Notes: generated by a model not told the origin, from the letters alone. A stretch of DNA of 49,232 bases from a virus (IMGVR_UViG_3300037484_000744:1-49232); one strand, 5' to 3'; positions 2,158-49,047 are shown, numbered from the stretch's first letter. A program made the numbers and translations.

Positions 2158-2447
2158 TCCCAACACAGTACCCCAAGTGCACCGTCTGCAGCGGCACCGG
2201 CGCCAGGCCCATGGCCTCGGCGTACGAGGTCCCCAAACGCTGCAAAGCTTGCCGCGGTCACGGGCGTCTAGTGCCCACGGCTGACACCCGTGTCGCGCGC
2301 AAGGAGCGCGGCCTGCGCTGCTTCACGCTGTGGCTTGCCGCGGAAGACGCTGCGGCGCTGGACGAGTTGCGTGACGCGCTAGGCTCCCATGCGGAAGGCG
2401 TCCGGGCCCTCGTGGCCTTTTGGAGAAAGAAGCGGCCTCGCAAATGA
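2154..2447 (+). CDS. Small protein with a DnaJ-type zinc-finger pair (CTVCSGTG ... CKACRGHG)
   Basis: ATGA coupling at 2154; two CxxCxGxG motifs at residues 9-37; alpha-helical C-terminal half. Confidence 0.6.
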   Translation: MIPTQYPKCTVCSGTGARPMASAYEVPKRCKACRGHGRLVPTADTRVARKERGLRCFTLWLAAEDAAALDELRDALGSHAEGVRALVAFWRKKRPRK

Positions 2448-2665
2448 ACAAGGACGAACGACTAGTCTGGAGCACGCGGCGCCGCGTGCACACGGCGGAA
2501 GACCGTTTTCGCAAAGAACAAGCTTTGCTTAACGCGGCGGTCACGCGTCTGCGCCAGCGTGGCACCTGCACGCACCCGCGCACGCACGCGGGGTTCACAG
2601 GCGGACCCACTTACATGCGGTGCAGCGTGTGCGGCGTTGCCGTGCGAAAGTTGGTGGCGAAATGA
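2444..2665 (+). CDS. Hypothetical protein (73 aa) with a C-terminal Cys/His cluster
   Basis: ATGA coupling at both ends; CTHPRTH...CSVC. Confidence 0.5.
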   Translation: MNKDERLVWSTRRRVHTAEDRFRKEQALLNAAVTRLRQRGTCTHPRTHAGFTGGPTYMRCSVCGVAVRKLVAK

Positions 2666-3285
2666 CGGACGAACAAATCGAACTGCTGCACCAGATTACG
2701 AACCTGGACGCGTTCTGCTTCGCGATCCTAGATGACAACAACGTGCTGTCCGGGAGGCAGGTTGCGCAGATCGCCACCGCGCGAAACCTGTGGGGGCTCG
2801 TCACGAAGACCACCGGGACGAACATCCGCAACGCATGGGTGGACGCGCGGCGCGGCGTGCGCGCGCAGATGTCCGCGCCGGGTGCCGAGGCCGAGGCGAC
2901 ACCCGAGCCGGAGGATCTGATCGCGCGCGTGGAGGGCATGCTTGAATCCGCCGTTGCCACCGGCGACGCGCGCACGTTGGAAGGCGTCACGCGCGCGTTG
3001 AAGGTACTCAAAGACATTGTCACCAAGAAGCCTGCCGCTGCGAACACCGAAGACTGGCAACGGCTCACGCCGAACGAGCGCGACGCGATCACCATGCTCA
3101 CGGACAAGCTCAACGGTCGGCCGCTCACGGATGACGGGCTGTGGTGGGTGGCGTTCCTGGCGAGCGCGCCCCCGCCCCCGGTGCACACGCATCCCGCGCA
3201 CGCGCCCCTCCCGCCCACCGCGCGCACGCCTTTGCTGGGCATTCCCGCGCCGGCATTGACGGCCGCGGAGACCGTGCCAAAGTAG
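2662..3285 (+). CDS. Hypothetical protein (207 aa); weak candidate for the small terminase subunit
   Basis: ATGA-coupled start. It has an N-terminal helical segment, a central coiled-coil-like region and a Pro-rich tail. No TerS motif was recognised, so the call rests only on size and architecture. Confidence 0.5.
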   Translation: MTDEQIELLHQITNLDAFCFAILDDNNVLSGRQVAQIATARNLWGLVTKTTGTNIRNAWVDARRGVRAQMSAPGAEAEATPEPEDLIARVEGMLESAVATGDARTLEGVTRALKVLKDIVTKKPAAANTEDWQRLTPNERDAITMLTDKLNGRPLTDDGLWWVAFLASAPPPPVHTHPAHAPLPPTARTPLLGIPAPALTAAETVPK

Positions 3286-3292
3286 GGTCACC

Positions 3293-3929: not shown

Positions 3930-4633
3930 GCAAAGACTTCACCGGCGTCATTCGCGGCGCCACACCAGCGGGCACGGAGCGGATCAAGGTGGCGCAACGC
4001 AGGCTCGGTGTGGTTGACGACGGCGCGCTCGGGCCCGTCACCATCTCGTCCCTTCTGTACGCGTTGGCGGACATCCTGCCGGAGGCCGAGCAGCCTACGC
4101 AGCCGGCCACGCCGCGCGCCATGTCGGAAGCCGAGGCGCGCGCCCGCGTGGTGGCGTGGGCCCTCGCGCGCGTGGGCGAGTTGGACCCCGTCACCGAGGT
4201 GTGGCCGGGGATTTGTGACGATTTCGCGGTGCCGGCGTGCCGGCACACCAAAGCTTGGTGCGGCGGTTTCGTGCTGCGTGCGTGGCGGGACAACCTGCCG
4301 GGCTGCGCGGGTTGGAAGTGGGATGGGGGCTTCGCGTTGCAGTATGGCGTGAAACGCGTAGGTACGCCGGACGCGGGGGACCTTCGCATCAGCCAGTACG
4401 TGGAGCCGTACTACGACGCGCGCGGGTACCTCATCCGCCCAGCTGATGCGAGCGTGCAGATCTGGCACCACAGCTTGGTCACACGCGTGCGCGGCGACGG
4501 GAATTTGGACACCGTGGACGGCAACACCCTGCAGGGGTTCCGCAACGGGAAGCAACTCGAAGGTGTGACCACGCGCACCGTGCCGATCATCGGCACCGGC
4601 GTTGCGTACTACAGCATGGCCGCTTACGTGTGA
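3926..4633 (+). CDS. Endolysin: PG_binding_1-like domain plus NlpC/P60-CHAP-like (TIGR02594-like) amidase domain
   Basis: IKVAQRRLGVVDDGALGPVTISSL resembles the peptidoglycan-binding repeat. AWCGGFV ... HH ... DTVDGN resembles the Cys-His peptidase core. ATG at 3926 lies inside ORF 3848..4633. Confidence 0.75.
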   Translation: MSKDFTGVIRGATPAGTERIKVAQRRLGVVDDGALGPVTISSLLYALADILPEAEQPTQPATPRAMSEAEARARVVAWALARVGELDPVTEVWPGICDDFAVPACRHTKAWCGGFVLRAWRDNLPGCAGWKWDGGFALQYGVKRVGTPDAGDLRISQYVEPYYDARGYLIRPADASVQIWHHSLVTRVRGDGNLDTVDGNTLQGFRNGKQLEGVTTRTVPIIGTGVAYYSMAAYV

Positions 4634-4641
4634 GACGCCGC

Positions 4642-5605: not shown

Positions 5606-7165
5606 ATGCCTACCGCTTTCACCGTTCCTTTGCCCGACGGCTCCCAGTGGCGCGCGCCTACGCTCGCGTCCGCCGATCGGGAGCGCGTGCGATGGGGCGG
5701 CTTCGAGGCGTTTTGCAAGATGGCGATCCCACACGTGCCGGGCGTGAAGGGATCGCCGCTGTGGAACTGGCACATGTCAGAAGTGTGCGCGCACTTCCAA
5801 GCGCTGTATGAGGACAGGTGCAGTGAGTTGGTGGTTAACGTGCCGCCCGGCCACATCAAGTCGACCATCAAATCGGTACTCGGGCCCGCGTGGATTTGGA
5901 CGTTGGATCCCGCGTACCAATTCATGATCGCGACGTACGATGACACGCTCTCTCGGAGGTTCGCAGAGTACACGATCGCCGTGTGCCGCTCGCCTTGGTA
6001 CGTGGAGCGATGGGGAGAGATCCTGCGCCCCGTCACCAACCAACAGGAATTCTACACGTACAAGTCCGGGTTGCGGTTCGGATCCACGCTCAAAGGCAAG
6101 GGCGTTGGCCGGCACGCCAACATGTACATGCTGGATGACCCAAACAAGCCTTTGACTGCGGAGAGCGCGGTGGATGGCAAGTTGGGCGCAGAGCTGAAGC
6201 AGACGAACGATGCTATTCAATCCAGCGTACTCACGCGCGCGCGGCCGGGCGAGCCGCTCCGACTTGTGGTTGCGCAACAGCGCGTACACGAGGAAGACGC
6301 GAGCGGGTTCCTGCTGGAGTCCCTAAGTAGCACGCGAGGCTTCGTCCACCTCATGCTCCCGCACAAGTTCGAGCCCGAGCGCCGTTGCGTGACGCCATTC
6401 GGCGGGGACCGGCGGCAACGTGCCGGTGAGTTGCTGTGGCCCATCCAAGAGGGCGCGGCGGAGAAAGTTGTGCGGTTGAAAGGTGGGTGGCATGGGACCA
6501 TCGCGCGCAACATGTACCAGCAAGATCCGCGCGGTGGTTCCGATCGCGTCTTCCACGCGAGCACGTTCAAGCGCTTCGACCCCAAGCGTCGGCCGCTGGC
6601 GCGCTGCTTCTCGTGCCTCTCGATCGACCCAACGTTCACGGACTCCGCGCGCTCGGACTACGTGGCGATGGAAGTGTGGGGTTTCGATGACGGGGACTTC
6701 CTGTGCTTCTACTCCGAAAACGTCCGGCGCACGTTCAATGAAACGCTAGGCGCGATCATCGAACTGCGGCGCGCGTGGAACGTGGACAACATTTTGATTG
6801 AGCAAGCGGCCAACGGCGCGGCGATCATTGACACGCTGCAACCGCTGATCCCTGGGATCGTGGTGTGCGAGCCGCGCGGTAAGAAGGTCATGCGCGCGCG
6901 AGCCGCGTCGCACCACTTCACCGCGGGCAATGTGTACTTTGCCGAGGGTGACGGGTGCGAGTGGTACGAGGATAAAGCGCGCAACCTGGTGCGCTTCCCC
7001 GGCGGGCGGCATGATGACGACGTGGACACCACATCTCAGGCGGTCTTGTGGCTGGCTTCCCAGTACGCGCTAGACGAAAGCTTCGTGGAAGCTTCAGACG
7101 CGTGGCGGAACGAGAGGCAATCCCTAGGGGCCCGGCTAAATGACCCGCTCGGTTTGCTAAGGTAG
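5606..7165 (+). CDS. terL: Terminase large subunit (Terminase_6-like)
   Basis: Walker A-like VPPGHIKST; Walker B MYMLDDP; C-terminal nuclease motifs SIDPTF, IEQAANG and GRHDDDVDT. Confidence 0.9.
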   Translation: MPTAFTVPLPDGSQWRAPTLASADRERVRWGGFEAFCKMAIPHVPGVKGSPLWNWHMSEVCAHFQALYEDRCSELVVNVPPGHIKSTIKSVLGPAWIWTLDPAYQFMIATYDDTLSRRFAEYTIAVCRSPWYVERWGEILRPVTNQQEFYTYKSGLRFGSTLKGKGVGRHANMYMLDDPNKPLTAESAVDGKLGAELKQTNDAIQSSVLTRARPGEPLRLVVAQQRVHEEDASGFLLESLSSTRGFVHLMLPHKFEPERRCVTPFGGDRRQRAGELLWPIQEGAAEKVVRLKGGWHGTIARNMYQQDPRGGSDRVFHASTFKRFDPKRRPLARCFSCLSIDPTFTDSARSDYVAMEVWGFDDGDFLCFYSENVRRTFNETLGAIIELRRAWNVDNILIEQAANGAAIIDTLQPLIPGIVVCEPRGKKVMRARAASHHFTAGNVYFAEGDGCEWYEDKARNLVRFPGGRHDDDVDTTSQAVLWLASQYALDESFVEASDAWRNERQSLGARLNDPLGLLR

Positions 7166-7172: not shown

Positions 7173-8846
7173 ATGACCCTTGCCAAGGCCCTAGCCACGC
7201 GCGCGGACAGCTGGATCAACGCCATCACCGGAATGGGTGGCACGCGAGACAAGACCACTTACGGGGCGTTCGGGTGCGTGCGGCGACTCTCGGACCAGGA
7301 GTGCGCCAACATGTTCGCGGGCGAAGATCTCTCTGCGCGCATTTGCGATCTGTACCCACGCGAGGCCATGCGCGAAAGCTTCGAGCTCGGTGGCGTGAAC
7401 CCGGACGACGAGCACAAGGTGCGTCAGTTCTTGGAAGGGTGGGACGTGAACGGCACCATGGTGCGCGGTCTGATCTGGGGTCGCGTGTTCGGTGGCTCTG
7501 CGGCGTGGTGCGCCGCGGCAAACGCAGCGGATAACGCAAAGCCTTACCGCGAAGGCGAGCCGATCGGTTTCGTGCGCGTGCTGGACAAGCGCCATCTAAC
7601 ACCCACGGGCACGGACCTGGACGCGTATGGGCGCCCGACCGTGTACAACTTGCACAAGCCAGAGGGCACCGACCACATCATCGGGCAGGTGCACGCGTCG
7701 CGCCTGGTTGTTTTCCCGGGCGTGCTCACGGACGACCAAGCGCGCGCAGCAAACAACTACTGGGATTATTCTGCGCTGCAGCGGCCTTTTGCTGCGCTGC
7801 GTTCGGAGGGCACCATCTGGAACGCCGCAGAGCAACTCATCACGGAGGCGTCGATCGGCGTCATCAAGATCAAAAACCTGCACGCCATGGTGGCCGCGAA
7901 GCAGAAGGACCGGCTGATCGATCGCCTGCAAACGCTGGCGCTCGGCCGCAGCATCGCCAAACACATGACGCTCGACGCGGATAAGGAGGACTACTCCCGC
8001 GTAAACACCACGTTTGCCGGCGTCGCTGATTTGACGGACCGCAGCATCAAGCGCATCGCTATGGCGTCCGAGATCCCGGTGACGGTTCTCATGGGCGAAG
8101 CGCCCGCCGGGCTCAACGCGACAGGCGATTCGGACTTGCGTTGGTTCCTCATGCGCGTGCACGCGTACCAGGTATCCATCGTGCAAGCTCGACTTCTAAA
8201 GCTTGTGACGATGCTGTTGCGTCAGCCCGGCGCGCCTACGGTGGACTTCGAAAAATTGTGTGTCATTTGGCCGGACCTGTGGACGCCGAGTGCCAAGGAG
8301 CGCGCAGACCTGTACCTGGCCACAGCTAACGGGGATGCGGTGTACATCGATCGTCAGGTCGTTACGCCGGAGGAAATCGCGCTTTCTCGGTTCGGCTCGG
8401 ATGGGTACTCGCAAGAGACGCAGATCAGCCGCGAACTGCGCGAGCCGGACCCGGACGGTCTGCCCGAACTGACAGCGGGGGTGCCCGCCGCAGTAGGCGC
8501 AGCGCCCGCACCCGGCAGCGATGCAGGCGCGCCCGCAACGGAAGACGTGCAGAAGACAGCACTCAACGGCGCGCAGGTGGCCAGCTTGGTGGACGTTGTC
8601 AAGGCGGTGGTTGCGGAAGAAATCCCCCGCGATGCTGCGGTGGAAATCGTCGCGCTCGCGTACCAAGTAACTACGGCAGAAGCCAACCGGCTACTCGGTT
8701 CTGCGGGCAAAGGGTTCGTGGGCAAGGCGCCGGAACCGGCGCCCGTGTTCGGCGCGCCCCGGCCCCCGCCTGAGACCGAACCAGAAGAGCCCGCCGCACC
8801 GCCCGTGCCCAAGAAAAAGAAGACACCGCCCCCGGCGGAGGAATAG
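7173..8846 (+). CDS. Portal protein (DUF1073-type) with a Pro/Ala/Lys-rich C-terminal tail
   Basis: N-terminal SWINAITGMGGTRDKT signature; 557 aa; lies immediately after TerL. Confidence 0.85.
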   Translation: MTLAKALATRADSWINAITGMGGTRDKTTYGAFGCVRRLSDQECANMFAGEDLSARICDLYPREAMRESFELGGVNPDDEHKVRQFLEGWDVNGTMVRGLIWGRVFGGSAAWCAAANAADNAKPYREGEPIGFVRVLDKRHLTPTGTDLDAYGRPTVYNLHKPEGTDHIIGQVHASRLVVFPGVLTDDQARAANNYWDYSALQRPFAALRSEGTIWNAAEQLITEASIGVIKIKNLHAMVAAKQKDRLIDRLQTLALGRSIAKHMTLDADKEDYSRVNTTFAGVADLTDRSIKRIAMASEIPVTVLMGEAPAGLNATGDSDLRWFLMRVHAYQVSIVQARLLKLVTMLLRQPGAPTVDFEKLCVIWPDLWTPSAKERADLYLATANGDAVYIDRQVVTPEEIALSRFGSDGYSQETQISRELREPDPDGLPELTAGVPAAVGAAPAPGSDAGAPATEDVQKTALNGAQVASLVDVVKAVVAEEIPRDAAVEIVALAYQVTTAEANRLLGSAGKGFVGKAPEPAPVFGAPRPPPETEPEEPAAPPVPKKKKTPPPAEE

Positions 8847-8849: not shown

Positions 8850-10019
8850 GTGGCCCTCGGCAAGCTAGCGGCGCAGCTCGAACTCCGCAAAGCGATCATG
8901 CGCGGCGCACGCCCCCCGCGCGCGGGCGTGGCCGCGGTGCGCCCGCCGGGCGCGCGCTTGTTCGAACGTGAGTACGAACGCCGCATGCTCGCCATGTGGG
9001 CGACGTTCCGCGAGCACGTGCACCGCGCCGCGCGGCAGGACCTGCGCTCGGACTCCACGGACTCTGACCTTCGGGATATCCTGCGCGTGCTGATGCGCGC
9101 AAGCGGCGTGCTGAATTGGCTAGACGGCAAAGCCGCGCAGACGCTGGACACGCAAGCGCGCTATGTGGAGCGAGTCACGCGCATCCCGCCCGCGGGCGCC
9201 CGCGCGGGAAGGCAAGCAGCAATCGAAGCTTTCCGAGAGGAGAACGCGCGCCTTATAACCCGCATGGGTGACGATCAGATTTCCCAGGTGATGGATCTGC
9301 TGCGCCCCGCGCAAGCAGTTGGCCAGCGGTGGGAGGAGTTGGCGCCGCAGATAGACAAGCGCCTGAACGTGGGTGCGTCGCGCGCCAAACTCATCGCGCG
9401 CGACCAGACGAACAAGTTCAACGGCAGCATGCAGCGCCTCACGCAAGAGGCGAGTGGCATCACCAAGTACCGGTGGAGCACGTCGCGTGATTTCGCGGTG
9501 CGCGGGCGCCCCGGTGGTGAGTACCCCACGGGGGAGGATCATTGGGTTTTAGAAGGGCAGGTCTTCACATGGGCTAACCCACCTTTAATTCCGGGCACAA
9601 GCGAACGCGCGCACCCGGGGCAACGCCCGCAGTGCCGCTGCGTGGCCACACCCGTGGTGGACTTTTTCGAGTCGTCCGGCGCGCCGCAGCGGACCATTTC
9701 CGTACCCGCGCCTACGCCTGTGGTTGAGGAGCCGCGCGTGGCAGAGTTACCTTCGCCCATTCCGCAGGACCTAACCAAGGGCGGCAAGCTACCTCTGCGC
9801 GCCACCAGCTTCGCGCACCTACGCGGGGGCGGCGCAGTCACGCAGGCGCTGCCAGTGTCGATCGCGGTGTACCCAGACGGCACGGTGTTCCCGCGTGACG
9901 GTCGACACCGCATCACGCTTGCGCGAGAGCGTGGCCAAAAGTTCATCGAAGGCGATGTGATTCGCGTGGGCAAACGCGGCGGGGAAAAAGTTGAGAAGAA
10001 AGTACGCATCCCGATATGA
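8850..10019 (+). CDS. MuF/SPP1 gp7-like minor head protein fused to a C-terminal ParB/sulfiredoxin-like domain
   Basis: MuF core ARDQTNKFNG...ITKYRWSTSRDFAVR...HPGQRPQCRCV; C-terminal PVSIAVYPDGTVFPRDGRHRITLARERG resembles the ParB N-terminal domain. Confidence 0.8.
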   Translation: MALGKLAAQLELRKAIMRGARPPRAGVAAVRPPGARLFEREYERRMLAMWATFREHVHRAARQDLRSDSTDSDLRDILRVLMRASGVLNWLDGKAAQTLDTQARYVERVTRIPPAGARAGRQAAIEAFREENARLITRMGDDQISQVMDLLRPAQAVGQRWEELAPQIDKRLNVGASRAKLIARDQTNKFNGSMQRLTQEASGITKYRWSTSRDFAVRGRPGGEYPTGEDHWVLEGQVFTWANPPLIPGTSERAHPGQRPQCRCVATPVVDFFESSGAPQRTISVPAPTPVVEEPRVAELPSPIPQDLTKGGKLPLRATSFAHLRGGGAVTQALPVSIAVYPDGTVFPRDGRHRITLARERGQKFIEGDVIRVGKRGGEKVEKKVRIPI

Positions 10020-10749: not shown

Positions 10750-11579
10750 GCACGGTGGAGTGGCACTGCGCCGAGTGTGGGTACGCCGAGCGCTGCGCTA
10801 CGCCAGACTACGCTATTGGCGAGTGGGAGCCGTGCCCCAAGTGCTCTGGCCTCGCGCGCGTGCGCGCCGTGCGCGGGCGCAGGCCGCGCGCGTTTTGGGC
10901 GCTGGCGGTTACGCTGCTGGCGCTGGTCGGGTGCAGCGCTGCCCCGGGCGCGCACCGTCTGGAAGCGCAGGCGGTAATTGTCGAGGCGCCCACGGATGAC
11001 TCAGACCACGTCTTCCTCACCGCGCCGATCGACACCCGCGCCGTGGTAGTGCTGATCAGCGGGTACCAGCGCAAGTGCACCGGCGTGGCGGTGACGCCGT
11101 GGCACATCTACACGGCTGACCATTGCCTGCAGGATGCGGACGCGGTTGGTGTTCAGTCGACGCTACGATTTGTAACGGCGCAGCACTGGGCAGACCGCGG
11201 TGGGACGCTCGCGGCCAACGAGCCGCACACAACCACCGTGATCGCGCGTGACGCTGGGATGGATCGCGCGCTCCTGCAGTCGAGTGTCGAGCTCGAAGCT
11301 TTCCTAGACATTGCGCCGGTGCATCGCGACGAGTGGGTGTGGACCGTGGTGCAGCGCGACGCGAGGTGGGAGGCGCTATTGGACACGAGCGGGGAGCCCG
11401 GCAAGTTCGCTGCGAACGTACCTATCGACCACGGGGACAGCGGCGCACCGGTGATCAACGTGTATGGCCAGCTTGTCGGGATAACAACCAACTGCCTCAA
11501 CGATCACGAGATCGACAATCCGGCTACCAACTGCGACGGCGGCGGCAGGTGGCGCCCGTTCGCGATGTGGTATCAGTGA
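10746..11579 (+). CDS. Trypsin-like (S1) serine protease with an N-terminal zinc ribbon and a lipoprotein-type signal (LVGC)
   Basis: Catalytic motifs TADHC (His126), DRALL (Asp173) and GDSGAP (Ser232). The signal is RRPRAFWALAVTLLALVGC. The N-terminus has CAEC...CPKC. An internal GTG start just before the signal peptide is also possible. Confidence 0.75.
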   Translation: MSTVEWHCAECGYAERCATPDYAIGEWEPCPKCSGLARVRAVRGRRPRAFWALAVTLLALVGCSAAPGAHRLEAQAVIVEAPTDDSDHVFLTAPIDTRAVVVLISGYQRKCTGVAVTPWHIYTADHCLQDADAVGVQSTLRFVTAQHWADRGGTLAANEPHTTTVIARDAGMDRALLQSSVELEAFLDIAPVHRDEWVWTVVQRDARWEALLDTSGEPGKFAANVPIDHGDSGAPVINVYGQLVGITTNCLNDHEIDNPATNCDGGGRWRPFAMWYQ

Positions 11580-32274: not shown

Positions 32275-32562
32275 GTGGCGGGACTTCCTGCCGCAGTGCG
32301 ACAGTTGTCCGCACTCTCTGAGATCCAAAGCTTGCTGGCTGGAGAGCTGCAGCGCCGCGTTGCGGAACTGGACCGGCCGCTCACCGGCGAAGACATCGTC
32401 ACGCGCGTGCTGGCATTACGTCCGGGCACCCCTGTTGCTAGCATACGCTCCGACATTTCCCGCGGGTACCGCAGCGGGTTCCTGAAACTGCACGGAGACG
32501 TAAGGAACGGCGGCACGTACACGCTCGGGCGTTCGGGCACGCGGATGCGCAAGGTGGGCTGA
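32275..32562 (+). CDS. Winged-helix-like DNA-binding protein; lone opposite-strand gene (candidate regulator)
   Basis: GTG start; globular, GC3-rich translation ending ...NGGTYTLGRSG. The antisense ORF 32226..32588 is Ser/Arg/Pro-rich and looks spurious. Confidence 0.55.
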   Translation: MAGLPAAVRQLSALSEIQSLLAGELQRRVAELDRPLTGEDIVTRVLALRPGTPVASIRSDISRGYRSGFLKLHGDVRNGGTYTLGRSGTRMRKVG

Positions 32563-41084: not shown

Positions 41085-42824
41085 CTAGGCCGCATCTTCA
41101 AGCCACCGCCAACGGTTGGCTTTCGTAACTGTTGGTCTACCACGCACAACCGTTGCACGCAGTATCTTATTTTGGAGTGAGAGCATCCGCTCGTTCTGAC
41201 GTGCCTCGCCCAGCGCGCGGTCCCAGGCGGCGTAACTGTCCCCGCTCGTACAGAGCACGGTAATTTCAACCGGGTGCTCCTGGCCGGCGCGATGGATGCG
41301 GCCGAACAATTGTTCCAGGTAAAGCGCACTCGGCGTGATGTTCACAAGCAACGCCTTGTGCCAATGGTATTGCAGATTGCGCCCGCGCAGGTTGCTTTGC
41401 CAGCTGGACACGGCGCTAACGCCCTTGGGGCTGTTGTCAATCTCCACGCCTGCGGCGTTGCAACCCTTGTCCGCGTAGTACTGCAGCCGGCTCACCTTCG
41501 CCAGCGCCTCACCGAACGCGGTGGCGCCGCAGAACGCAATCGCCGGCCCTTCGCGCTGCAGCCACTTGGACGCGTACTGCAACGTGCTGGCGGAAATCCA
41601 ACGCTCGACGCTGTTGGGCTTGAACTTGTTTTTTACTTCGAGCCAATCGGTCACGCGCGGATCGTCCGGGTACGCCGCAACCACCGCGGCGTATGTATCC
41701 AGCGGGTTGCGCGTATTGGCCGTCGCCTTGATGCGCCCGCGCACGAACTTGGCGCACACGATGCGCGGTTCCAACCACCACTTGGGCGGCTTTGGGTCCC
41801 ATTCGTAGTACAACCCGGCGCCCAGCCAATCGCAGTGCATGGCGTAGCTGAGGACGTTTTTCTTTCCCTCGCCTTGCATGAGAGGAATTCCACCCGGTGT
41901 GATCCACAACCGGCGCAGCGTCTTGTAATGCTCGTCCAGGATGGGATCTTCAGGCGCACACACAAGCTTGATGGTGAGCGGTTGCTCGCAGCTGTCCCCG
42001 CGCACGATCACGACGCCTGGGGTTGAGAGCACGCGCTTTCGGAATGCGTTCTGCGCACCGCGCTTGGTCTCCGGCTCGCCCATGGCGCGGCACAGCTTTG
42101 CTAGCGCCCCGATGTGCACGTGCATCCCGTTGCGCTTGGGCTTCTCGTCCAGCGCTGCGGCCCACATGGCCTGTTCGGTTGGGTCCGTTGGCACCGGCGC
42201 ATGCTGCCCGAGCGCCCAAACCATCTGGGGCATGTAGTCCAGCGCGCTGTGGCGCCCCGGCGTGGCCGTGAGCTCAATCACCGCTGGCTCGTTGCCAAAC
42301 ACCTCGCGCGCAATGCGCTTGTGCACGCTGGCGTCACTGTTCCGGGAGCGATCACTCTCGTCAATGATCAGCACGTCCGGCTTATGCCGTGCCAACAGGT
42401 CAACGTTTTTCTTGTTGGTTAGATCTTCAAACCCAACGAGCCGCGGGGGTGGCTTGGGTGATTTCCACACGCCAACGAACTCACGGAACTCTCGGTACGT
42501 CTTTTTCTTGAGGCCACCGGGCAGCAAAAGAATGGGCGCGCGGGCTTGAAGTATGACGCAGATCAACCACGTGAGGAGCGTCTTACCCGCGCCGACGGAC
42601 AACGCGGCGTACTGCCCAACGATGCCCGTATCCCGGTACAGCCGCAACAGCTCGGCAAGGCAGAACGCTTGCCACACGCGGAGCCGCGCGTGCGGTTGCA
42701 GCGCCAACAGTTGCGTCATGTGCTTGCGGTCCTCCCTAGCTTGGGCCAGTGAAAGCGGCCGGCTAGGGAGGGCAAGGATGCGCCGCAGGTCTGCGCTGTC
42801 TCGGACTTCTGCGGCGCGCGGCAT
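41085..42824 (-). CDS. SF2 (DEAD/DEAH-type) helicase
   Basis: Walker A SVGAGKT; motif II IIDESD; motif III TATP; motif VI GRIHRAGQ. Confidence 0.85.
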   Translation of the reverse strand: MPRAAEVRDSADLRRILALPSRPLSLAQAREDRKHMTQLLALQPHARLRVWQAFCLAELLRLYRDTGIVGQYAALSVGAGKTLLTWLICVILQARAPILLLPGGLKKKTYREFREFVGVWKSPKPPPRLVGFEDLTNKKNVDLLARHKPDVLIIDESDRSRNSDASVHKRIAREVFGNEPAVIELTATPGRHSALDYMPQMVWALGQHAPVPTDPTEQAMWAAALDEKPKRNGMHVHIGALAKLCRAMGEPETKRGAQNAFRKRVLSTPGVVIVRGDSCEQPLTIKLVCAPEDPILDEHYKTLRRLWITPGGIPLMQGEGKKNVLSYAMHCDWLGAGLYYEWDPKPPKWWLEPRIVCAKFVRGRIKATANTRNPLDTYAAVVAAYPDDPRVTDWLEVKNKFKPNSVERWISASTLQYASKWLQREGPAIAFCGATAFGEALAKVSRLQYYADKGCNAAGVEIDNSPKGVSAVSSWQSNLRGRNLQYHWHKALLVNITPSALYLEQLFGRIHRAGQEHPVEITVLCTSGDSYAAWDRALGEARQNERMLSLQNKILRATVVRGRPTVTKANRWRWLEDAA

Positions 42825-44416
42825 CAGGAACCCAAGGACGCGGCGATCGCGGCGATGGCGTTGGGGTCGTTGCTCTCGACCGTGAGGCGAAACGTGACGG
42901 CGCTGGACGGTGCTGCAGCGGCAGCCTTGGGCGCCTTGGCAGCAGGGGCATCAGGCGCGGGGCGCGCCTGAGGTCGCGTGGGGCCGGGCGGAGCGGCCTT
43001 CTTGGCCTTGGGCGCGGGCTCCTCGTCTTCGTCTTCGTCCTCGTCCTCTTCCTCCTCGTCTTCGTCTTCGTCTTCGTCTTCGTCTTCGACGGGCGGTGGG
43101 GCCTTCTTGCCTTTCTTGGGCGCGGGTGCCGGCTCGTCTTCCTCTTCCTCGTCTTCTTCCTCGTCTTCCTCTACCGGGGGCGGCGGGGCTTTCTTGCCTC
43201 CGGCCTTCGCGTTGAGGGCTTCGAGCTTGGCCATGTAGTCGTCCGGGCTCGTGGGTTTCGGTTTTGCCATGATGATAGGTAGTCTCCTTTTCGCAATTGA
43301 CGCGCAAGCCAAACCAAGCGACCGGTGCGCGTCACACCGCCCGCCTCGTGAAACATGATGCTCACACCCCGCGAAGTTGTCGCACGACTCGGGGTTGCGG
43401 ATGCACTCATCTAGGGTCTCGAGTGTATCCAACTCGGCCGCACGCGCGGCCATCGCTTGAACCTTAGCCGTCACCTCGGCGGGCGTCAAGGCCATGGCGC
43501 GGGCCCACGCGTTGCGCTTGCCCCGCGTGCAGAAGTACACCCAACGCATGAAGATGGGGCGCTCGCCGCCCGCCCCCACACGCTGGCACAGCGCATCGTA
43601 TGCGTACAGGTTGACCTGGCCATCGTCCTCCAGGATCTCCGGCTCGTGCCAACGCTTGCGACCTGTGGCCGCAAATGCCGCAGCCGTAGCGCGGGTGTCC
43701 TTCACGTACCCTTCGCCGGCCGTCGACTTGTAGTCGAACGTCACCCAATCGGAGGGCCTAACGCCGCGCTTCCACAGCGCCAAGCGCTTGAGTCCAGCTT
43801 TAGAGATGCGGGCGCGGAGGTCAATGAAGCCCTTCCACGTGACGCCGAACGCACGCCCGCCGAACACGGGGACAGCGCCGGCGCCCTTGCACGCGTGGCA
43901 CTTCTTGCGCCGACCGATGGCGCCTACGCGGCCCTGCCCTGCGCACGCCTCGCACGCGTCCGGCGCGAGCGGCACGGACTCCTCCAGCGTGAGACCGTTC
44001 TCAATCCGGATTTCGATGCACTCTTCCGGACGCGGCAGCAGGTGCAGCCCGGACAGCGCGATCTGTCCCGGTAGCGAGTCCCAATCCGGCGCGGGCCCCT
44101 GGCCGTAGTACCCTTCCAGCACGGCGTGCATGCCCTTGCCGAGGGAGGCTGACCATTCCTTCCGCAGCACCGTACGCCCGAAGTGCTTCGCCAGAATGAC
44201 GCCCATGTCATCCGAGCCGGGCTTGCCCTTCTGCGCTGGCGTCCACCACGGGAATTCACCCGCGAAGATCCGTTTCCACGGAAGCTTGACGCACGCCTCG
44301 AACTCGGCCCACGGCGTATCGAGCCGCGGTGCACCCTCGATGTACCGGATGCCCCATGCGTACTCACACTCATACGCCAGCGCGATGCTGGACGGGCTGT
44401 GGTGGGGTCGGGTCAA
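42824..44416 (-). CDS. PD-(D/E)XK Cas4/DUF2800-like nuclease with an inserted zinc-finger module and a long acidic/Lys-Pro C-terminal extension
   Basis: TTG start. N-terminal SPSSIALAYECEYAW; core FIDL...FDYKS; C-terminal Cys cluster CDNFAGCEHH...C; insert CEACAGQG...CHACKGAG. The tail has Glu/Asp runs separated by PAPKKGKKAPPP. Confidence 0.75.
   Translation of the reverse strand: MTRPHHSPSSIALAYECEYAWGIRYIEGAPRLDTPWAEFEACVKLPWKRIFAGEFPWWTPAQKGKPGSDDMGVILAKHFGRTVLRKEWSASLGKGMHAVLEGYYGQGPAPDWDSLPGQIALSGLHLLPRPEECIEIRIENGLTLEESVPLAPDACEACAGQGRVGAIGRRKKCHACKGAGAVPVFGGRAFGVTWKGFIDLRARISKAGLKRLALWKRGVRPSDWVTFDYKSTAGEGYVKDTRATAAAFAATGRKRWHEPEILEDDGQVNLYAYDALCQRVGAGGERPIFMRWVYFCTRGKRNAWARAMALTPAEVTAKVQAMAARAAELDTLETLDECIRNPESCDNFAGCEHHVSRGGRCDAHRSLGLACASIAKRRLPIIMAKPKPTSPDDYMAKLEALNAKAGGKKAPPPPVEEDEEEDEEEEDEPAPAPKKGKKAPPPVEDEDEDEDEDEEEEDEDEDEDEEPAPKAKKAAPPGPTRPQARPAPDAPAAKAPKAAAAAPSSAVTFRLTVESNDPNAIAAIAASLGS
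43021..43172 (-). repeat. Coding GAA/GAC/GAG triplet-repeat tracts (poly-Asp/Glu)
   Basis: Plus strand shows (tcgtct/tcctcg)n runs at 43021-43089 and 43133-43172. Confidence 0.85.
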
Positions 44417-44948: not shown

Positions 44949-45673
44949 TCGCCGTTGCCAAGCGCCTGGTTGGCTTCCTGCTGTGGCTCGCGCTGCGGCT
45001 GTACGTGTTCGTGGCCCGGCGGCCCATGCGTCGCCTGCGCCCAGATGAAGCAGACTACATCGATCGGTACTTCCTCACCAGCACACCGCAGGGTGACGAG
45101 ACCGGCACGCCCGGTTGGTACCTGCAGCGGATCTACCGCGCGGACCCGGACACGCGGTTACACACGCACCCGTGGGCACACAGCAAAAGCTTGATTCTGC
45201 GGGGCGGGTACGGTGAGCGAAAATGGGCGCACGAACACGTGACGCAGACGCGCTGGTACACGCCACTCACCTGGAACACGTTCCCGAACCGCTACGTGCA
45301 GCACCGCATCTTTTGGGTGTGGGGTGACACCTGGACGTTATTCTATGCCGGGCCGAAGCACGGCAAGGGTTGGGGGTTCGTGGGAAACACCCGAACAGAC
45401 GAGGCAACGCGGGCAGCACATTCGGTGCGGGGCGTGTGGTGGGGGAAAGCGCTGCGGCCTGTAGGTGCGGGGGACCTGGTGACGGTGGAAGGCGTGGACG
45501 TGCAGAACTGTGCACGCTGCGGTGGCTGTGGATACGACCCCGATCCGGGAGCCGCCGGATACGAGGGAATGTGTGTCGCGTGCCAAGGTAACGGCACGGT
45601 GCCCCACACAGATGAAGACGAACCCACCATGCCCGGCGTGGGCTCACCTGCGTGGGAACGGGGCGCCCGTTGA
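44945..45673 (+). CDS. N-terminally membrane-anchored protein with an LHTHPW cupin-like core and a C-terminal zinc-finger module
   Basis: GTGA-coupled GTG start; hydrophobic LVGFLLWLALRLYVFV; core RLHTHPWAHSKSLILRGGYGE; CARCGGCG...CVACQGNG. Confidence 0.55.
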   Translation: MIAVAKRLVGFLLWLALRLYVFVARRPMRRLRPDEADYIDRYFLTSTPQGDETGTPGWYLQRIYRADPDTRLHTHPWAHSKSLILRGGYGERKWAHEHVTQTRWYTPLTWNTFPNRYVQHRIFWVWGDTWTLFYAGPKHGKGWGFVGNTRTDEATRAAHSVRGVWWGKALRPVGAGDLVTVEGVDVQNCARCGGCGYDPDPGAAGYEGMCVACQGNGTVPHTDEDEPTMPGVGSPAWERGAR

Positions 45674-48210
45674 GAGACACCATCACGGTGCTCCGCACCG
45701 CGTCCCGACGCAAACGTCTGACCAAGGTGTACCGCGCGGACGGCAGCGTCCAGGCGTTCGATCGCGTGGCGCAGTTCGTTGTGGATGCGGAGGTGCGTGT
45801 GCGCACCTTCACCGATCTGCTGCGACTGCTCATGGCGATCGAAAACGATCCCACGCGCTGCGTCGTCCGCGGCGACGTGCACCCGGACGTGGTGCAAGGT
45901 GCCGGCGGGGAGCGCGTCCGGCGCGTCTCCAAGGTGCCCAAGGACGACCCCACCATCACGCCTCCCTTCCGCCCAGCCGCGCGGCAGTGGGCCGCCATCG
46001 ACGTGGACGAGAGCACCACCCCCTACGACCCCGAGGACCCCGAGGGCAGCGCGGCGCAGTGGTTCGAAGACGTTGGCGCCCGCCTTGGCATCAAGGCCTG
46101 CGTGTGGCAGTGGAGCTCCTCCGCGCACCGCTCGCCCACCGTGCGCGGCCGTGCGTGGGTGCTCCTGGACCGACCGCACACCGATCTCGAGATGCGGGCG
46201 TGGGCTGGCACGTGGGGCATTGACGATTCCCACTATACCGCAGTGGCCATCCATTACACTGCAGCACCTAAGTGGGAGAAGCACTGCGACGCGTGCGGCG
46301 GGCCCGGCAACGGCCCATGCGCCGAGTGCAATGGCTCCGGCGTGGTTCCTGACTCTGATGCGGACCCCCTGGCGGGGCGCAGGCTTCTAGTGCTGGGCGA
46401 TCCCTCCGACGGGCCGTGCGTGCTGCTCCCCGGCGAAGGCGTGGCGGTGGAGGCGCGCCCGGCGCTCACGGCGCTAGACCTGGAGGCCAATGCCGAGGCC
46501 GTGCACGATGACCCGCGCGCGCAGGCGCTTCTCCAAAGCCTGCCGTTGGCATCCGAGTGCCACGGCAGGAAGTGGCCCCTCTGCGGGGCGCTGGGCGGCG
46601 TGTGGCGCCGCATGCTGGTGCCGGAGGACTCGGCGGTGGCCGCGTGCACCGCGTGGCTCGCCGAGGCCGCTGAAGGGGACACATCCGTGGACGTGGCGGC
46701 GGGGGTGGCGCACATGCGCGGCGCGTACCAACGCCCGGCGGTGGAGGTGTCCGGCGTGGACACGCTGCAACCGCTGTTGGGCGAGGCCATCACTGGGGGC
46801 GTGGTGGACGCGGCGCTAGGGTGCACGGGGTTGGGCGCGCGTGCGCTTGCCGCGCGGCAGGAACGCGAGGACGCTGCGGACCCGCTGGCGCACGCAGACC
46901 CATCCATGTACACGGAGCAGCCGCTGATTTTGCAGTCCACCAAGGACGGCCGCGTGGCGCTGTGGCAGGGGGACGAGCGCGGGCACGCCAGCATCACCAT
47001 CAGCGCGCTGCGGCTCCGCATTCGTGAATTGGGCCTGCCCATTGAGCTCAAAGGCGCCGATGGGGGTTCGATCGCCGCGGGCACCGTGGTGGAGGCCAAC
47101 GGCACCACGTTCGACAATTACGCCCGCGATTTCGCCGCCGGCGTGAGTAGGTACGAACGCGACAGTCGCACGCTGATCGAAGGGTACCCCGACGCCTGCA
47201 CGGTGCCGGGCGTGTTTGATGCGGACGTGGATGCGTGGCTGCGCGCCATGGGTGGGCGGCAGTACGAGCGCTTGGCCGTGTGGGTTGCCAGCTGCGTGCA
47301 GCGGAATATTGGACGCCTTTCGGCGGCGTTGGTCATGCTTGGGCCGGCCGATGTAGGCAAAAGCTTGTTTGCTGCAGCGTGCGCAGGGCTCTGGGGTGAG
47401 GCTGCGTGCCCGACCGCGAACCTGTTGATTGCTAGATTCAACGGAGGCCTAGCTAAGTGCCCCGTGGTGTTCGACGACGAGTGTCGCTTGTTCGGCTCGC
47501 GGGACCTGAGCACGAAGGCCTTCCGGGACCTGATGCAGAAGCCCGAGAGGCAGGTGGAACCGAAGGGGTTGGAGGCCTACACGCTGCGTGGGTGCACGCG
47601 GCTGATCGTAGCGGGCAACGAAGCCGGGGACCTACGCTTCGACGATGTGACCGGGCCAGACGTGGTCAAAGCGGTCGCTGACAGGCTTTTGGTGATAGAC
47701 GCAAAACCGCGCGCGGTGGAAGCGCAGGCGGCCTTGGCGCGGCTGCGCGGGGACGGGGCGTGGACGGTGGACCTAGCTCGAGTGGTGGCGCACTTCGCCT
47801 GGTTGGGGGAGACGGTTGCCCTGCCAGCGGAAAGGTTCTTGGCTGCGGGCGATGGCGCCGTGGCGGCTGCGGCCGTGCTCGCGGGGCACGCCGAGGCCTC
47901 CGTGGACGCGTGGGACTCGCTGCGGGAGTGGCTGGACGCCCCGCATGGGGAGCGCGACGTGCGGGTGTGGTCGGTGCACGGGGGCCGGCTCTGCGTGGAC
48001 CCGCGGGCGCTGCGGGACGTTTTGGACGACACCCACCGATGGGACGCCGTGCGGGTGCGGGAGGCGCTGCGGCCGTTCTTAGAGCGTGAGGTGCGTCCCA
48101 GGGTGGGCATGGGGCGTCCTAGGCCGCGCCTGTGGCAGCTGGACGCGTTGAAGGTGTGCGAGTCGTGCAGCGTGGCGCCGCGGGCCCTAGCGGGGCGCCT
48201 GGGGCTTTAG
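45652..48210 (+). CDS. Primase-polymerase (AEP-like) / SF3 helicase fusion protein
   Basis: N-terminal acidic motif AAIDVDE; inserted CDACGGPG...CAECNGSG; Walker A GPADVGKS; Walker B VVFDDE. Alternative TTG start at 45670 is coupled by TTGA. Confidence 0.7.
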   Translation: MGTGRPLRDTITVLRTASRRKRLTKVYRADGSVQAFDRVAQFVVDAEVRVRTFTDLLRLLMAIENDPTRCVVRGDVHPDVVQGAGGERVRRVSKVPKDDPTITPPFRPAARQWAAIDVDESTTPYDPEDPEGSAAQWFEDVGARLGIKACVWQWSSSAHRSPTVRGRAWVLLDRPHTDLEMRAWAGTWGIDDSHYTAVAIHYTAAPKWEKHCDACGGPGNGPCAECNGSGVVPDSDADPLAGRRLLVLGDPSDGPCVLLPGEGVAVEARPALTALDLEANAEAVHDDPRAQALLQSLPLASECHGRKWPLCGALGGVWRRMLVPEDSAVAACTAWLAEAAEGDTSVDVAAGVAHMRGAYQRPAVEVSGVDTLQPLLGEAITGGVVDAALGCTGLGARALAARQEREDAADPLAHADPSMYTEQPLILQSTKDGRVALWQGDERGHASITISALRLRIRELGLPIELKGADGGSIAAGTVVEANGTTFDNYARDFAAGVSRYERDSRTLIEGYPDACTVPGVFDADVDAWLRAMGGRQYERLAVWVASCVQRNIGRLSAALVMLGPADVGKSLFAAACAGLWGEAACPTANLLIARFNGGLAKCPVVFDDECRLFGSRDLSTKAFRDLMQKPERQVEPKGLEAYTLRGCTRLIVAGNEAGDLRFDDVTGPDVVKAVADRLLVIDAKPRAVEAQAALARLRGDGAWTVDLARVVAHFAWLGETVALPAERFLAAGDGAVAAAAVLAGHAEASVDAWDSLREWLDAPHGERDVRVWSVHGGRLCVDPRALRDVLDDTHRWDAVRVREALRPFLEREVRPRVGMGRPRPRLWQLDALKVCESCSVAPRALAGRLGL

Positions 48211-48651
48211 CGGCGCGGCGCCCACCGCCGCGGGGCGTTTTAGGAAGGCGAATCCGGCGTCATTGGAAGAGAGCTCCACCGCTGTTTTGACTGTGAAGCG
48301 GACCCGTCGCCAATTGCGCGCCTCCGTGGGGTCGTAGGGGCGCGGGGCGCCTGACAGCGCCACAAGGGCGTCCGACGCCGCGGCGTAAGCTTTGGCGTAG
48401 GCAGCGCACTCGAAGGCCTGCAGCGTGGTGTGGAAGACCACGCAGGGCTCTCCGTCAGCATCGATGCGAAACAGGAAGTGGACCCCCTGGTAGGCGTATG
48501 GGGGCAGGCCGTGGATGCCATCCATGAAGCCCTGCGCGTAGGCCGCTTGCACATTGGCTTCGGTGTTCTCGCGGCACTCGGCGGGGGTGAGGGCGGTGTA
48601 AACGAGGCGCCCGGTCGGGGTCGGGTCTGGGCGTTGGTGAGCTTTTCGCAT
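48187..48651 (-). CDS. Hypothetical protein (154 aa), convergent with and overlapping the primase 3' end by 24 nt
   Basis: RBS ACGGAGACC precedes the ATG at 48651 inside ORF 48187..48846. Confidence 0.5.
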   Translation of the reverse strand: MRKAHQRPDPTPTGRLVYTALTPAECRENTEANVQAAYAQGFMDGIHGLPPYAYQGVHFLFRIDADGEPCVVFHTTLQAFECAAYAKAYAAASDALVALSGAPRPYDPTEARNWRRVRFTVKTAVELSSNDAGFAFLKRPAAVGAAPLKPQAPR

Positions 48652-48697
48652 TTGGTCTCCGTTCTGTGCGTACAATAGCACGTCTGGGAGCGTTTGG

Positions 48698-49047
48698 GGA
48701 CCGAAAATGGTCCGGGGTCCAGGGGGCCAAGGGCGCGGACCGGGGCTCGGACCGAGCTTTTCCAGGCTTATTTGGCTGCGGTGTGAGTTTGGTCCGTGTG
48801 GGCCAACTTTTTGGAACTCATACCAGCCATCCCAGCCACACGCCACGGCTCCCGCGTCCCACCCTACCTACCCCTATATCTTATCTTTATTTCTTAAGAA
48901 TAGAAAAGAAAGGACCATAGGGACTAAGCCTTAAAAGATGCGGTCCGCGCGCGGTCCAAAGGCGGTCCCTTGGAGGACCTGCACGTCCAAATGCAGAAAT
49001 GCGGGGTTTATGCATGCATTCATAAGCTTGCGTGGTGCGGCTGGTCC
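48698..49047. repeat. Cluster of 12 GGWCC pentamers, including three GCGGTCC units spaced exactly 11 bp apart (48940, 48951, 48962)
   Basis: GGACC at 48698, 48737, 48749, 48912 and 48975; GGTCC at 48709, 48716, 48791, 48942, 48953, 48964 and 49043. The region is bracketed by the 10-mer TGTGCGTACA at 48665 and 49055. Confidence 0.8.
48865..48940. other. AT-rich island in non-coding DNA (candidate DNA-unwinding element)
   Basis: ctatatcttatctttatttcttaagaatagaaaagaaaggaccatagggactaagccttaaaagatg contrasts sharply with the GC-rich surroundings. Confidence 0.6.

Follow-up and report, generated by a model that had tools for sequence, protein, structure and literature searches.

Why should a GC-rich phage genome carry so many copies of an AT-rich palindrome that is spelled with codons the genome otherwise avoids? 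We addressed this question in IMGVR_UViG_3300037484_000744:1-49232, a viral stretch of 49,232 nucleotides with 65.2% guanine plus cytosine (G+C), hereafter the window, in which the hexamer AAGCTT had been proposed, from the sequence alone, to be strongly over-represented. The AAGCTT excess is real under codon-aware null models. It arises through synonymous codon choice and is absent from all of the related loci that we compared, and we tentatively read the word as a recognition site under selection in this phage lineage.

AAGCTT exceeds expectation under codon-aware null models

A direct search of the window finds 39 AAGCTT sites. The original prediction had counted 38 by hand, and its claim of an excess holds, with the exception of the number itself, site 7089 having been overlooked; 34 of its coordinates are right and four are misplaced (15710, 22789, 31371, and 39862 should read 15700, 22779, 31372, and 39861, respectively). 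Its estimate of about five sites from composition is close to the 4.8 that base composition gives, and dinucleotide-preserving shuffles yield 5.4 +/- 2.0 sites with a maximum of 12. Markov models of orders 1, 2, 3, and 4 predict 5.7, 8.8, 10.1, and 21.1 sites. The last of these figures is inflated and partly circular, since the sites account for 39 of the 57 AAGCT pentamers; the next base is T after 68% of AAGCT pentamers, compared with 19 of 100 for the other NAGCT pentamers.

Synonymous codons were also shuffled within each of the 61 genes called with a self-trained codon model (92% of the window), which keeps the proteins and the codon usage of each gene. Under this null, 1000 shuffles yield 11.6 +/- 2.5 sites and never more than 23; given a mean of 11.6, the Poisson probability of at least 39 sites is 2e-10. 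Whole-codon permutation gives 9.4 +/- 2.3 sites. A codon-preserving null had been named at the outset as a possible refutation, and the excess stands up to it. When all 2080 strand-symmetric hexamers are ranked under the synonymous null, AAGCTT comes first (z = 10.8); the runner-up is the overlapping word AAAGCT, and no further hexamer comes near. The comparison of observed and expected counts for all hexamers that had been suggested, run with both Markov and synonymous-shuffle expectations, thus has AAGCTT as its top hexamer.

An origin of the excess in chance, composition, codon usage, or an assembly artefact has in its favor that the order-4 Markov expectation rises as high as it does. That value is the circular one, and the remaining null models all lie between 5 and 12 (z = 10-13). 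As for assembly, the reading frames run intact through the sites, and the contig closes on itself: positions 1-127 are an exact direct repeat of 49106-49232, the kind of end overlap that k=127 assembly leaves on circular contigs. This makes the genome complete at 49,105 bp and circular or circularly permuted. A Hi-C or HindIII library artefact was rejected as well, the sites being synonymous spellings within intact reading frames. Because of the synonymous-shuffle and hexamer-ranking results, we regard all of these origins as effectively refuted, with a negligible chance of accounting for the excess.

The excess is synonymous

Genes contain 35 of the 39 sites, and four are intergenic. The genic sites occupy all three codon phases (14/9/12) and genes of both strands, as had been claimed, and the codon contexts quoted earlier were all correct. 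The codons described as avoided are indeed rare, with CTT making up 9% of Leu codons and GCT 9% of Ala codons. Lys-Leu is spelled AAG-CTT in 14 of 38 pairs against 2.7 expected, and AAG-CTG in 3 against 10.4 expected. Taking the three frames together, AAGCTT is present at 35 of the 178 positions at which the protein permits it, compared with 5.4 expected from independent codon usage. The permitting peptides themselves are not enriched (178 vs. 167 +/- 12 after amino-acid shuffling), and the excess is therefore purely synonymous; selection acting at the protein level is rejected on the same ground. That selection acts on the DNA word rather than on the protein is thus strongly supported, the excess being synonymous, equal among frames and orientations, and derived with respect to the relatives discussed below. 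The one-mismatch neighbors of AAGCTT are mildly depleted (z from -1.3 to -2.2), and no neighbor stands out; a repair signature among them was rejected, the depletion being weak and diffuse.

The word is better written as MAAGCTTK

The enrichment depends on the bases that flank the hexamer. Sites with both flanks favorable (MAAGCTTK) number 24 against 5.7 expected, sites with one favorable flank number 14 against about 5, and the class with no favorable flank (KAAGCTTM) shows no enrichment, with 1 site against 1.0. The word is hence better written as MAAGCTTK. At position -1 of the half-site the base frequencies are.44 A,.36 C,.15 G, and.05 T, the corresponding values before AAG in general being.19,.38,.37, and.06. 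The inner word AGCT is not enriched (157 vs. 147), the flanks of the two half-sites are independent of each other, and no information was found at the sites further out than the flanking base. AAAGCTT is enriched 7.3-fold in the sense and 8.4-fold in the antisense direction, and the enrichment thus does not depend on the direction of transcription. Among flank classes, the asymmetric AAAGCTTG/CAAGCTTT is the most frequent (17 sites vs. 12.2 expected). An oriented 7- or 8-mer AAAGCTTG of a Chi-like or primase-like kind was rejected as the principal explanation because sense and antisense enrichment are equal. The graded, symmetric, and contiguous dependence on 8 bp instead suggests recognition as double-stranded DNA by a symmetric protein of the restriction-modification (R-M) type.

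The flanks had also been thought to extend the dyad often into 12-bp palindromes, which the counts do not bear out. The dyad extends by at least 1 bp at 8/39 sites, compared with 27% of control palindromic hexamers, and by at least 3 bp at 3/39 sites (p = 0.07), which is not significant. With no extension beyond that of control palindromes, a dyad-extension or hairpin idea was rejected. A separate observation concerns the 12-mer TCGAAGCTTTCC, which occurs three times (9223-9234, 11293-11304, and 31660-31671), each time around an AAGCTT site and in unrelated genes; such a triple is unusual, the chance expectation being about one shared pair.

The sites appear more evenly spaced than chance

The 39 sites are listed below, preceded by three genes that are named in the list and discussed further on. 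Strand is given for genes only.

29508..30389, minus strand: orphan methyltransferase, beta-class N6/N4, with a DAPY catalytic motif; candidate reader, with a putative link to AAGCTT
36996-40199, minus strand: DNA polymerase A gene, with an intein at about 38043-39110 (about 356 aa) that has a LAGLIDADG homing-endonuclease domain and lies directly before the TGR motif
45652..48210, plus strand: primase plus SF3 helicase (DUF5906; 852 aa), essentially private to the lineage; speculative alternative reader

2245..2250: gene 2154-2447 (+), xAA GCT Txx (K-A-C), flanks a/g, both favorable
2520..2525: intergenic, flanks c/t
4251..4256: gene 3848-4633 (+), AAA GCT TGG; AAG GCA TGG in relative L004
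5451..5456: gene 4850-5605 (+), AAA GCT TGG; AAG GCG/GCC TGG in relatives, two synonymous changes
7078..7083: large terminase gene 5606-7165 (+), GAA AGC TTC
7089..7094: large terminase gene, near its end, GAA GCT TCA; the site overlooked earlier
7376..7381: portal gene 7173-8846 (+), GAA AGC TTC
8199..8204: portal gene, AAG CTT (K-L); AAG CTC or AAG CTG in most relatives
9226..9231: gene 8850-10019 (+), GAA GCT TTC; GAA GCG TTC in relatives; inside the 12-mer TCGAAGCTTTCC
11296..11301: gene 10719-11579 (+), inside TCGAAGCTTTCC
13084..13089: gene 12931-13416 (+), AAG CTT
15700..15705: gene 15310-15849 (+), AAG CTT; AAG CTC or AAG CTG in 5/6 relatives
16298..16303: gene 15846-16433 (+), GCA AGC TTT
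16719..16724: tail sheath gene 16491-17849 (+), AAG CTT
17197..17202: tail sheath gene, AAA GCT TAC; AAG GCC TAC in relative L095
18996..19001: gene 18939-20657 (+), AAG CTT
19991..19996: gene 18939-20657 (+), GCA AGC TTT
20157..20162: gene 18939-20657 (+), AAG CTT
21104..21109: gene 20657-21433 (+), center of the 16-bp perfect palindrome TCCAAAAGCTTTTGGA (21099-21114), the longest dyad at any site
22779..22784: gene 22554-23270 (+), AAG CTT
23524..23529: gene 23284-23694 (+), inside CACAAGCTTGTG
24419..24424: gene 23697-24884 (+), AAA AGC TTT
25216..25221: gene 24881-25519 (+), inside CCAAAGCTTTGG
26678..26683: gene 26662-27504 (+), CAA GCT TTG
29941..29946: within the methyltransferase gene (-)
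31372..31377: SbcD-like exonuclease gene 30939-32216 (-)
31663..31668: SbcD-like exonuclease gene (-), inside TCGAAGCTTTCC
32328..32333: intergenic
34745..34750: exonuclease-like gene 34649-35323 (-), AAG CTT
35718..35723: gene 35495-36022 (-)
36937..36942: intergenic
39192..39197: DNA polymerase A gene (-), AAG CTT, immediately outside the intein
39861..39866: DNA polymerase A gene (-), AAG CTT
41964..41969: helicase gene 41085-42824 (-), AAG CTT
44282..44287: gene 42824-44416 (-), AAG CTT
45187..45192: gene 44945-45673 (+), AAA AGC TTG
47361..47366: primase-helicase gene (+), AAA AGC TTG
48387..48392: gene 48187-48681 (-), AAA GCT TAC
49024..49029: intergenic, not within the 127-bp terminal overlap

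On the 49,105-bp circle, a site occurs every 1259 bp on average. The coefficient of variation (CV) of the 39 gaps is 0.62, compared with 0.96 under a uniform circular null (p = 0.0008) and 0.90 +/- 0.13 when sites are sampled from the 178 opportunity positions (p = 0.004), and of the 540 words present in 30-50 copies just one has a lower gap CV. No gap exceeds 3263 bp, where a maximum of about 5400 bp would be expected (p = 0.01). We observe 0.7-0.9 sites per kb in each of the early, structural, replication, and right-end modules, and opportunities are used at the same rate in genes common to relatives (19.6%) as in private genes (20%), so that a shortage of sites in recently acquired genes is not seen. 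The two intervals described earlier as free of sites (1-2244 and 26684-29940) are so, and a 2-kb block at 27505-29507 has zero sites. The intein is also site-free, as had been stated, which is uninformative for an element of just 1.1 kb, and the terminal 127-bp overlap has no AAGCTT site. At the other extreme, the sites at 7078 and 7089 are just 11 bp apart, the sole gap below 160 bp.

The trait appears private among the loci compared

The window has no close relatives in the collections searched. The nearest portal match is 50% identical (among 5.8 billion proteins) and the nearest cultured phages are only about 30% identical; megablast found no close relatives among GenBank phages, and single-protein scans with the portal, methyltransferase, and primase found none in IMG/VR. 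Going by contig names, relatives come mainly from soil and rhizosphere metagenomes. The matches on bacterial genome contigs are only distant and prophage-like (35% identity or below), and in the attempt at host identification the tetranucleotide correlation reached at most 0.46.

Our comparison set comprised about 215 loci of at least 8 kb each, designated by L numbers where needed. They consist of portal relatives from assemblies, JGI metagenomes, and bacterial genomes, of 11 IMG/VR contigs with the same methyltransferase family, of relatives found via a conserved 314-aa protein, and of contigs with homologs of the HNH endonuclease or of a 152-aa protein. An AAGCTT excess is found in 0 of the approximately 215 loci. 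The highest count elsewhere is that of L113 (8 sites vs. 2.6 expected), which is not significant given the number of tests, and the strongest palindromic hexamer of the whole locus set is the AAGCTT of this genome. With the same gene calling and synonymous shuffle applied to 14 relatives, we found no private AT-rich palindrome in any of them, and the notion that every relative has a private word of its own is thus not seen.

At 50 aligned site positions a relative keeps the peptide, and the AAGCTT spelling is present there in just 9. The tripeptide K-A-W, for example, is AAA GCT TGG here, whereas three relatives have AAG GCG TGG or AAG GCC TGG, and two synonymous changes, to rare codons in the window, separate the spellings. 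That relatives usually spell the same peptides otherwise shows the sites to be derived in this phage lineage, and the trait appears to be private to this genome among the loci compared.

Two relatives have pronounced word biases of other kinds. In L001 (GCA_034680565.1, contig JAXOUH010003983.1), CGCAGC/GCTGCG and CTGCGC are totally avoided (0 vs. about 22) and ATCTGA is in fivefold excess (20 vs. 4), private word biases unlike those of this genome. In L011 (IMGVR_UViG_3300017700_000722), GCCCGC/GCGGGC occurs 135 times against 68 under the synonymous null (z = 12), the strongest word excess in any relative besides AAGCTT.

A possible recognition site kept for genome-wide coverage

From these analyses, we tentatively favor the reading that a symmetric DNA-reading protein of the R-M type recognizes AAGCTT and that selection in this lineage keeps the sites for genome-wide coverage, a reading that we consider plausible if somewhat short of probable. 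MAAGCTTK would then be a "highly iterated palindrome" (HIP) private to this phage lineage, a DNA-level signal written via synonymous recoding and held at approximately one site per 1.26 kb with spacing evener than chance. Its reader would recognize double-stranded DNA, as opposed to a single strand, RNA, or protein. That the sites are evenly spaced and leave no long stretch uncovered suggests that the benefit would come from coverage of the whole chromosome rather than from individual sites, so that no position would be further than about 1-3 kb from a mark or binding site. The sites might, for example, anchor the organization of the genome, mark it epigenetically as self, or signal strand or identity for repair or for protection from nucleases. 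Because relatives seemingly under the same host defenses are without the trait, the reader is more likely to belong to the phage lineage, encoded by it or specific to it, than to the host clade in general. In a more specific form of this reading, which is possible and somewhat doubtful, the virus would keep an iterated palindrome of its own, a phage-encoded reader would recognize MAAGCTTK, and selection would leave every point of the chromosome at most about 1-3 kb from a site that signals self-identity, protection, or replication. Such a reader could be the private primase-helicase, a nuclease-like binder, or a methyltransferase whose specificity has shifted. The earlier suggestion of a binding word for an organizing or packaging protein fits the even spacing and the symmetric flank preference, whereas no candidate protein for it was found.

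Several points weigh against the recognition-site reading. The case is made from a single genome, whose nearest portal relative has the identity given above; site conservation among close relatives would be the classic proof of selection. The argument from a shared host landscape rests on shared word avoidance, and a host-specific cause is possible. The spacing statistic was picked after the data had been seen, and its significance is moderate. The enrichment of 3.4-7-fold is far below that of HIP1, which makes weak directional processes possible. Finally, no reader protein emerged, and no recognizable DNA-reading fold was found among the other private proteins. The HNH protein, a generic Cas9-like or nicking-type domain, was rejected as a private reader because contigs bearing homologs are without the trait, and the 152-aa protein because its sole IMG/VR homolog (L181, 60% identity) lies on a contig without the trait; the family comparison of the methyltransferase, given in the next section, points the same way. 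The 314-aa protein (32779-33723) was also considered as a private HindIII-like enzyme and rejected, its family being widespread in these phages and having no structural or family match.

Candidate readers and rival explanations

The recognition word of the orphan methyltransferase was among the meanings first proposed for AAGCTT. Among the encoded enzymes, this protein alone is predicted to be of the kind that recognizes short contiguous palindromes. It has a PF01555 match at residues 159-222 and DAPY at residues 29-32 of its 293-aa form, and the catalytic motif is therefore N-terminal and the S-adenosylmethionine (AdoMet) motif C-terminal, as in the beta-class N6-adenine enzymes of HindIII-type systems. 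We found no cognate endonuclease gene adjoining it, the neighbors being the 152-aa protein and genes without a restriction-enzyme match, and the methyltransferase is therefore an orphan; the sole match of restriction-enzyme type is a weak, generic HNH 3.3 kb away. As a specific sub-case of the recognition-site reading, this enzyme might methylate AAGCTT, with the marks serving as an epigenetic self-mark or a strand or identity signal needed about every kb, which we judge to be unlikely. The enzyme shares its class with the three characterized AAGCTT methyltransferases, M.HindIII, M.EcoVIII, and M.LlaCI, which are 50-62% identical mutually and methylate the first A of AAGCTT (PMC5974420), and its lack of an adjacent restriction gene likewise speaks for this model. 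In cyanobacteria, each iterated palindrome co-occurs with its methyltransferase at about 1 site per kb (PMC4390886), compared with 1 per 1.26 kb here, and enzymes of this sort typically read a contiguous hexamer and show flank effects. The family itself argues otherwise. Members about 50% identical are common on contigs of phage size, and strong conservation extends through the central (target-recognition) region, yet AAGCTT is at expectation, with no anomaly, in all of the 11 IMG/VR contigs and L176-L178, whose homologs are 41-57% identical. For comparison, M.EcoVIII and M.HindIII share specificity at just 50% identity. The copy in the window is not divergent either, with 9 departures from the family consensus (rank 9th of 40) that are not clustered centrally, and its similarity to solved beta-class enzymes is restricted to the AdoMet-binding region, the top match being CcrM, which targets GANTC. 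A conserved center would be explained equally well by a non-specific enzyme, and phage beta-class adenine methyltransferases can be non-specific (PMC3299994). Moreover, methylation alone would lead to neutrality toward the site and not to enrichment. The enzyme is of the right class, and the specificity first proposed for it is not supported by comparison. Directly upstream on the same strand, the 152-aa basic protein (30386-30844, minus strand) has a C-terminal CxxC...CxxC zinc-ribbon-like motif and a stop codon that overlaps the methyltransferase start codon, and the two genes look translationally coupled.

Of the genes that have no counterpart in relatives, the primase-helicase is the largest, with just two matches of 28-29% identity among about 180 loci and none in IMG/VR. 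It might start lagging-strand primers at AAGCTT, in which case the palindrome would serve both strands and the spacing of about 1.3 kb would keep Okazaki fragments short. Such a model gains from the lineage specificity of the enzyme, from the even spacing without long gaps, from the asymmetric flank class being the commonest, and from a site density in line with the bacterial Okazaki fragment length. Set against this, known primase words are trinucleotides on single-stranded DNA that are abundant by chance, and to our knowledge no enrichment of primase words has been reported. The flanks are also compatible with independent symmetric half-sites, which fits double-strand recognition better, and we regard priming at AAGCTT as very improbable. 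Neutral mutation, whether by template-switch quasi-palindrome correction, by biased repair of the very-short-patch kind, or by a context bias of the phage polymerase that would turn near-cognate words into AAGCTT, has hardly any likelihood in our view. Sites are gained through single or double synonymous substitutions and the one-mismatch neighbors are slightly depleted overall, as such a mechanism might have it, and Elhai's model of HIP1 invokes biased repair (PMC4390886). A neutral process would not predict the even spacing or the flank dependence, however, and other palindromic hexamers are not enriched beyond codon effects, no single neighbor is strongly depleted, dyads are not extended, and relatives with homologous polymerases are without the trait.

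Whether the bias was inherited from the host is best judged beside the words that the same genome avoids. GACGTC (the AatII word) occurs once against 16 (or 12-22) expected, ATGGAC once against 17 and ATGGAG not at all against 15 (ATGGAS, 1 vs. 32), ACCCAG/CTGGGT 4 times against 23-29, and CCCCCC/GGGGGG 5 times against 24-45. ACCCAG is presumably the site of the type IIG enzyme RdeGBII. Met-Asp and Met-Glu are spelled ATGGAT and ATGGAA instead, with ATGGAT present 17 times against 3.8 under the order-4 model. The depletion of GACGTC is classic restriction avoidance in the same genome as the AAGCTT enrichment, and that of ATGGAS looks like avoidance of a non-palindromic restriction or BREX-type site in hosts of the phage group. 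Relatives show these patterns as well. GACGTC is also avoided in L001-L003, L010, L014, L176-L178, and L181 and is absent altogether from several relatives. Near-absence of ATGGAS is seen in L001, L002, L003, L007, L010, L011, L012, L013, L028, L097, L113, L143, L176-L178, and L183, and its total absence is common to at least 12 related soil-phage contigs and is not found in prophage loci of Kaistia, Xanthobacter, and Methylobacterium.

Under host inheritance, the phage would have drifted along with a host that itself carries this iterated palindrome or whose repair or methylation pushes the DNA replicating in it toward AAGCTT. The host does impose strong word selection here, of the opposite sign, on GACGTC, ACCCAG, and ATGGAS, and phage oligonucleotide usage generally follows that of the host. 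Core and private genes also share the excess evenly, as expected of a process acting on the whole genome. HIP-type words, too, are properties of host chromosomes in the only well-studied case (PMC4390886, PMC5861425). The relatives speak against it: L001 has every one of this genome's avoidances, L176 and L177 have the GACGTC and ATGGAS avoidance and the methyltransferase family, and in none of the three does AAGCTT rise above expectation. A host-wide cause is unlikely, provided that the avoidances held in common stem from similar host defenses. None of the 80 bacterial genome loci examined (0/80; Rhizobium, Methylobacterium, Inquilinus, Xanthomonas, Burkholderia, Acinetobacter, Myxococcaceae metagenome-assembled genomes (MAGs), and others) is enriched in AAGCTT. 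We know of no GC-rich bacterium with an AAGCTT excess, and a literature search returned none, both of which count against host inheritance. A neutral bias, furthermore, does not predict even spacing, and the neighbors carry no sharp repair signature, being just mildly depleted. Inheritance from the host, one of the original suggestions, is thus weakened, and we hold it to be improbable.

Likeness to known systems

The closest parallel to a selected recognition site of this kind is found in HIP1 (GCGATCGC) and the alternate HIPs of cyanobacteria, which occur at about 1 per kb and are tied to methyltransferases (PMC4390886). HIP1 is under selection and non-randomly spaced (PMC5861425). In both cases, a palindrome far exceeds the frequency expected from composition and codon usage, lies inside as well as outside genes, is read in every frame with non-preferred codons, and recurs at close to one site per kb (cf. 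PMC4390886) in a genome with an orphan methyltransferase. The spacing of AAGCTT also looks non-random, at moderate significance. The differences are as follows. HIP1 is an octamer, whereas the word here is a hexamer with a flank preference, and its enrichment is 15-300-fold compared with 3-7-fold here. HIP1 is a cellular, clade-wide trait of bacterial chromosomes, whereas AAGCTT enrichment is found in one 49-kb genome of a virulent-type phage and is private among the approximately 215 loci. HIP1 shows a periodicity of 10-90 kb, a scale that 49 kb cannot show, in contrast to the even kilobase-scale spacing here. Finally, HIP1 has a word-specific methyltransferase, whereas the methyltransferase here is of the right class with a negative family comparison.

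Restriction-site avoidance in phages (PMC6286503, PMC4687349) likewise acts on short palindromes through synonymous choice, and this genome itself avoids GACGTC, ACCCAG, and ATGGAS. For AAGCTT, the sign is the opposite, observed counts in avoidance being below expected ones. In systematic surveys, over-representation unrelated to R-M systems is seen in just about 1% of site-genome pairs (PMC4687349). HindIII-type R-M systems (M.HindIII, M.EcoVIII, M.LlaCI; PMC5974420) have the identical word and a beta-class methyltransferase of similar size to that of the phage (293-303 aa). They differ in that no cognate endonuclease gene was found here and in that the family-level comparison argues against AAGCTT specificity.

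Other genome-wide words also offer partial parallels. Chi, KOPS, DNA uptake sequences, and GATC (Dam/MutH) are selected genome-wide and give their benefit through density and coverage, GATC being a palindrome that is required within 1-2 kb of any mismatch. All of these are host-chromosome systems common to whole clades, and Chi, KOPS, and uptake sequences are asymmetric and orientation-biased, in contrast to the symmetric AAGCTT with its palindromic core and symmetric flanks. The mycobacteriophage L5 stoperators, the phiC31 conserved inverted repeats, and the P1 C1 operators are 13-17 bp long, mostly intergenic, often oriented with transcription, and common to related phages. Like AAGCTT, such scattered operators are present in tens of copies over a genome of about 50 kb, and their reader is phage-encoded. 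The sites here differ in being genic (35/39), in all frames, and in having a contiguous word of 6-8 bp. In the literature searched, we came across no phage described as over-representing a palindrome and no analysis of HIP1 enrichment in cyanophages.

Should the more specific form of the reading, with its phage-encoded reader, prove true, a HIP-like system would for the first time be linked to a mobile genome. Phage genomics sees short palindromes as liabilities to be purged, and the investment in rare codons observed here would imply a positive genome-wide DNA signal of a kind undescribed for viruses. The function of HIP1-type words has stayed unresolved for about 30 years, partly because bacterial chromosomes hold thousands of copies. 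With 39 synonymous sites in 49 kb, full recoding is feasible, which would make the question experimentally tractable. Word-usage host prediction and restriction-avoidance scans assume depletion only, and such genomes would be misread by them.

Other features of the genome

The genome is of the myovirus type, with genes for the large terminase, portal, a Mu-F-like protein, capsid, sheath, tube, and baseplate. A leftward replication module includes the family-A polymerase with its intein, a helicase, the SbcD-like exonuclease, the HNH endonuclease, and the orphan methyltransferase, and the DUF5906 primase-helicase lies on the right side of the genome. No tRNA genes were found in the genome. Among bacterial loci, those nearest to the portal (35-36% identity) are the Myxococcaceae-labelled MAGs L016 and L026. 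Their G+C is only 44-48%, far below that of cultured Myxococcus, and their binning or taxonomy may be unreliable. A 234-aa pentapeptide-repeat protein at 1259-1963 on the plus strand (PF00805, E = 1.8e-39) is of the DNA-mimic kind and may be a candidate anti-restriction or gyrase-directed factor. The family of the 314-aa protein at 32779-33723 (minus strand), widespread in this phage group, includes members that some sources label "isopenicillin N synthase-like dioxygenase", and the 242-aa protein at 44945-45673 (plus strand) matches a PHROG called cysteine dioxygenase. These two possible oxygenase-like enzymes in the replication module could belong to a DNA or nucleotide modification pathway.

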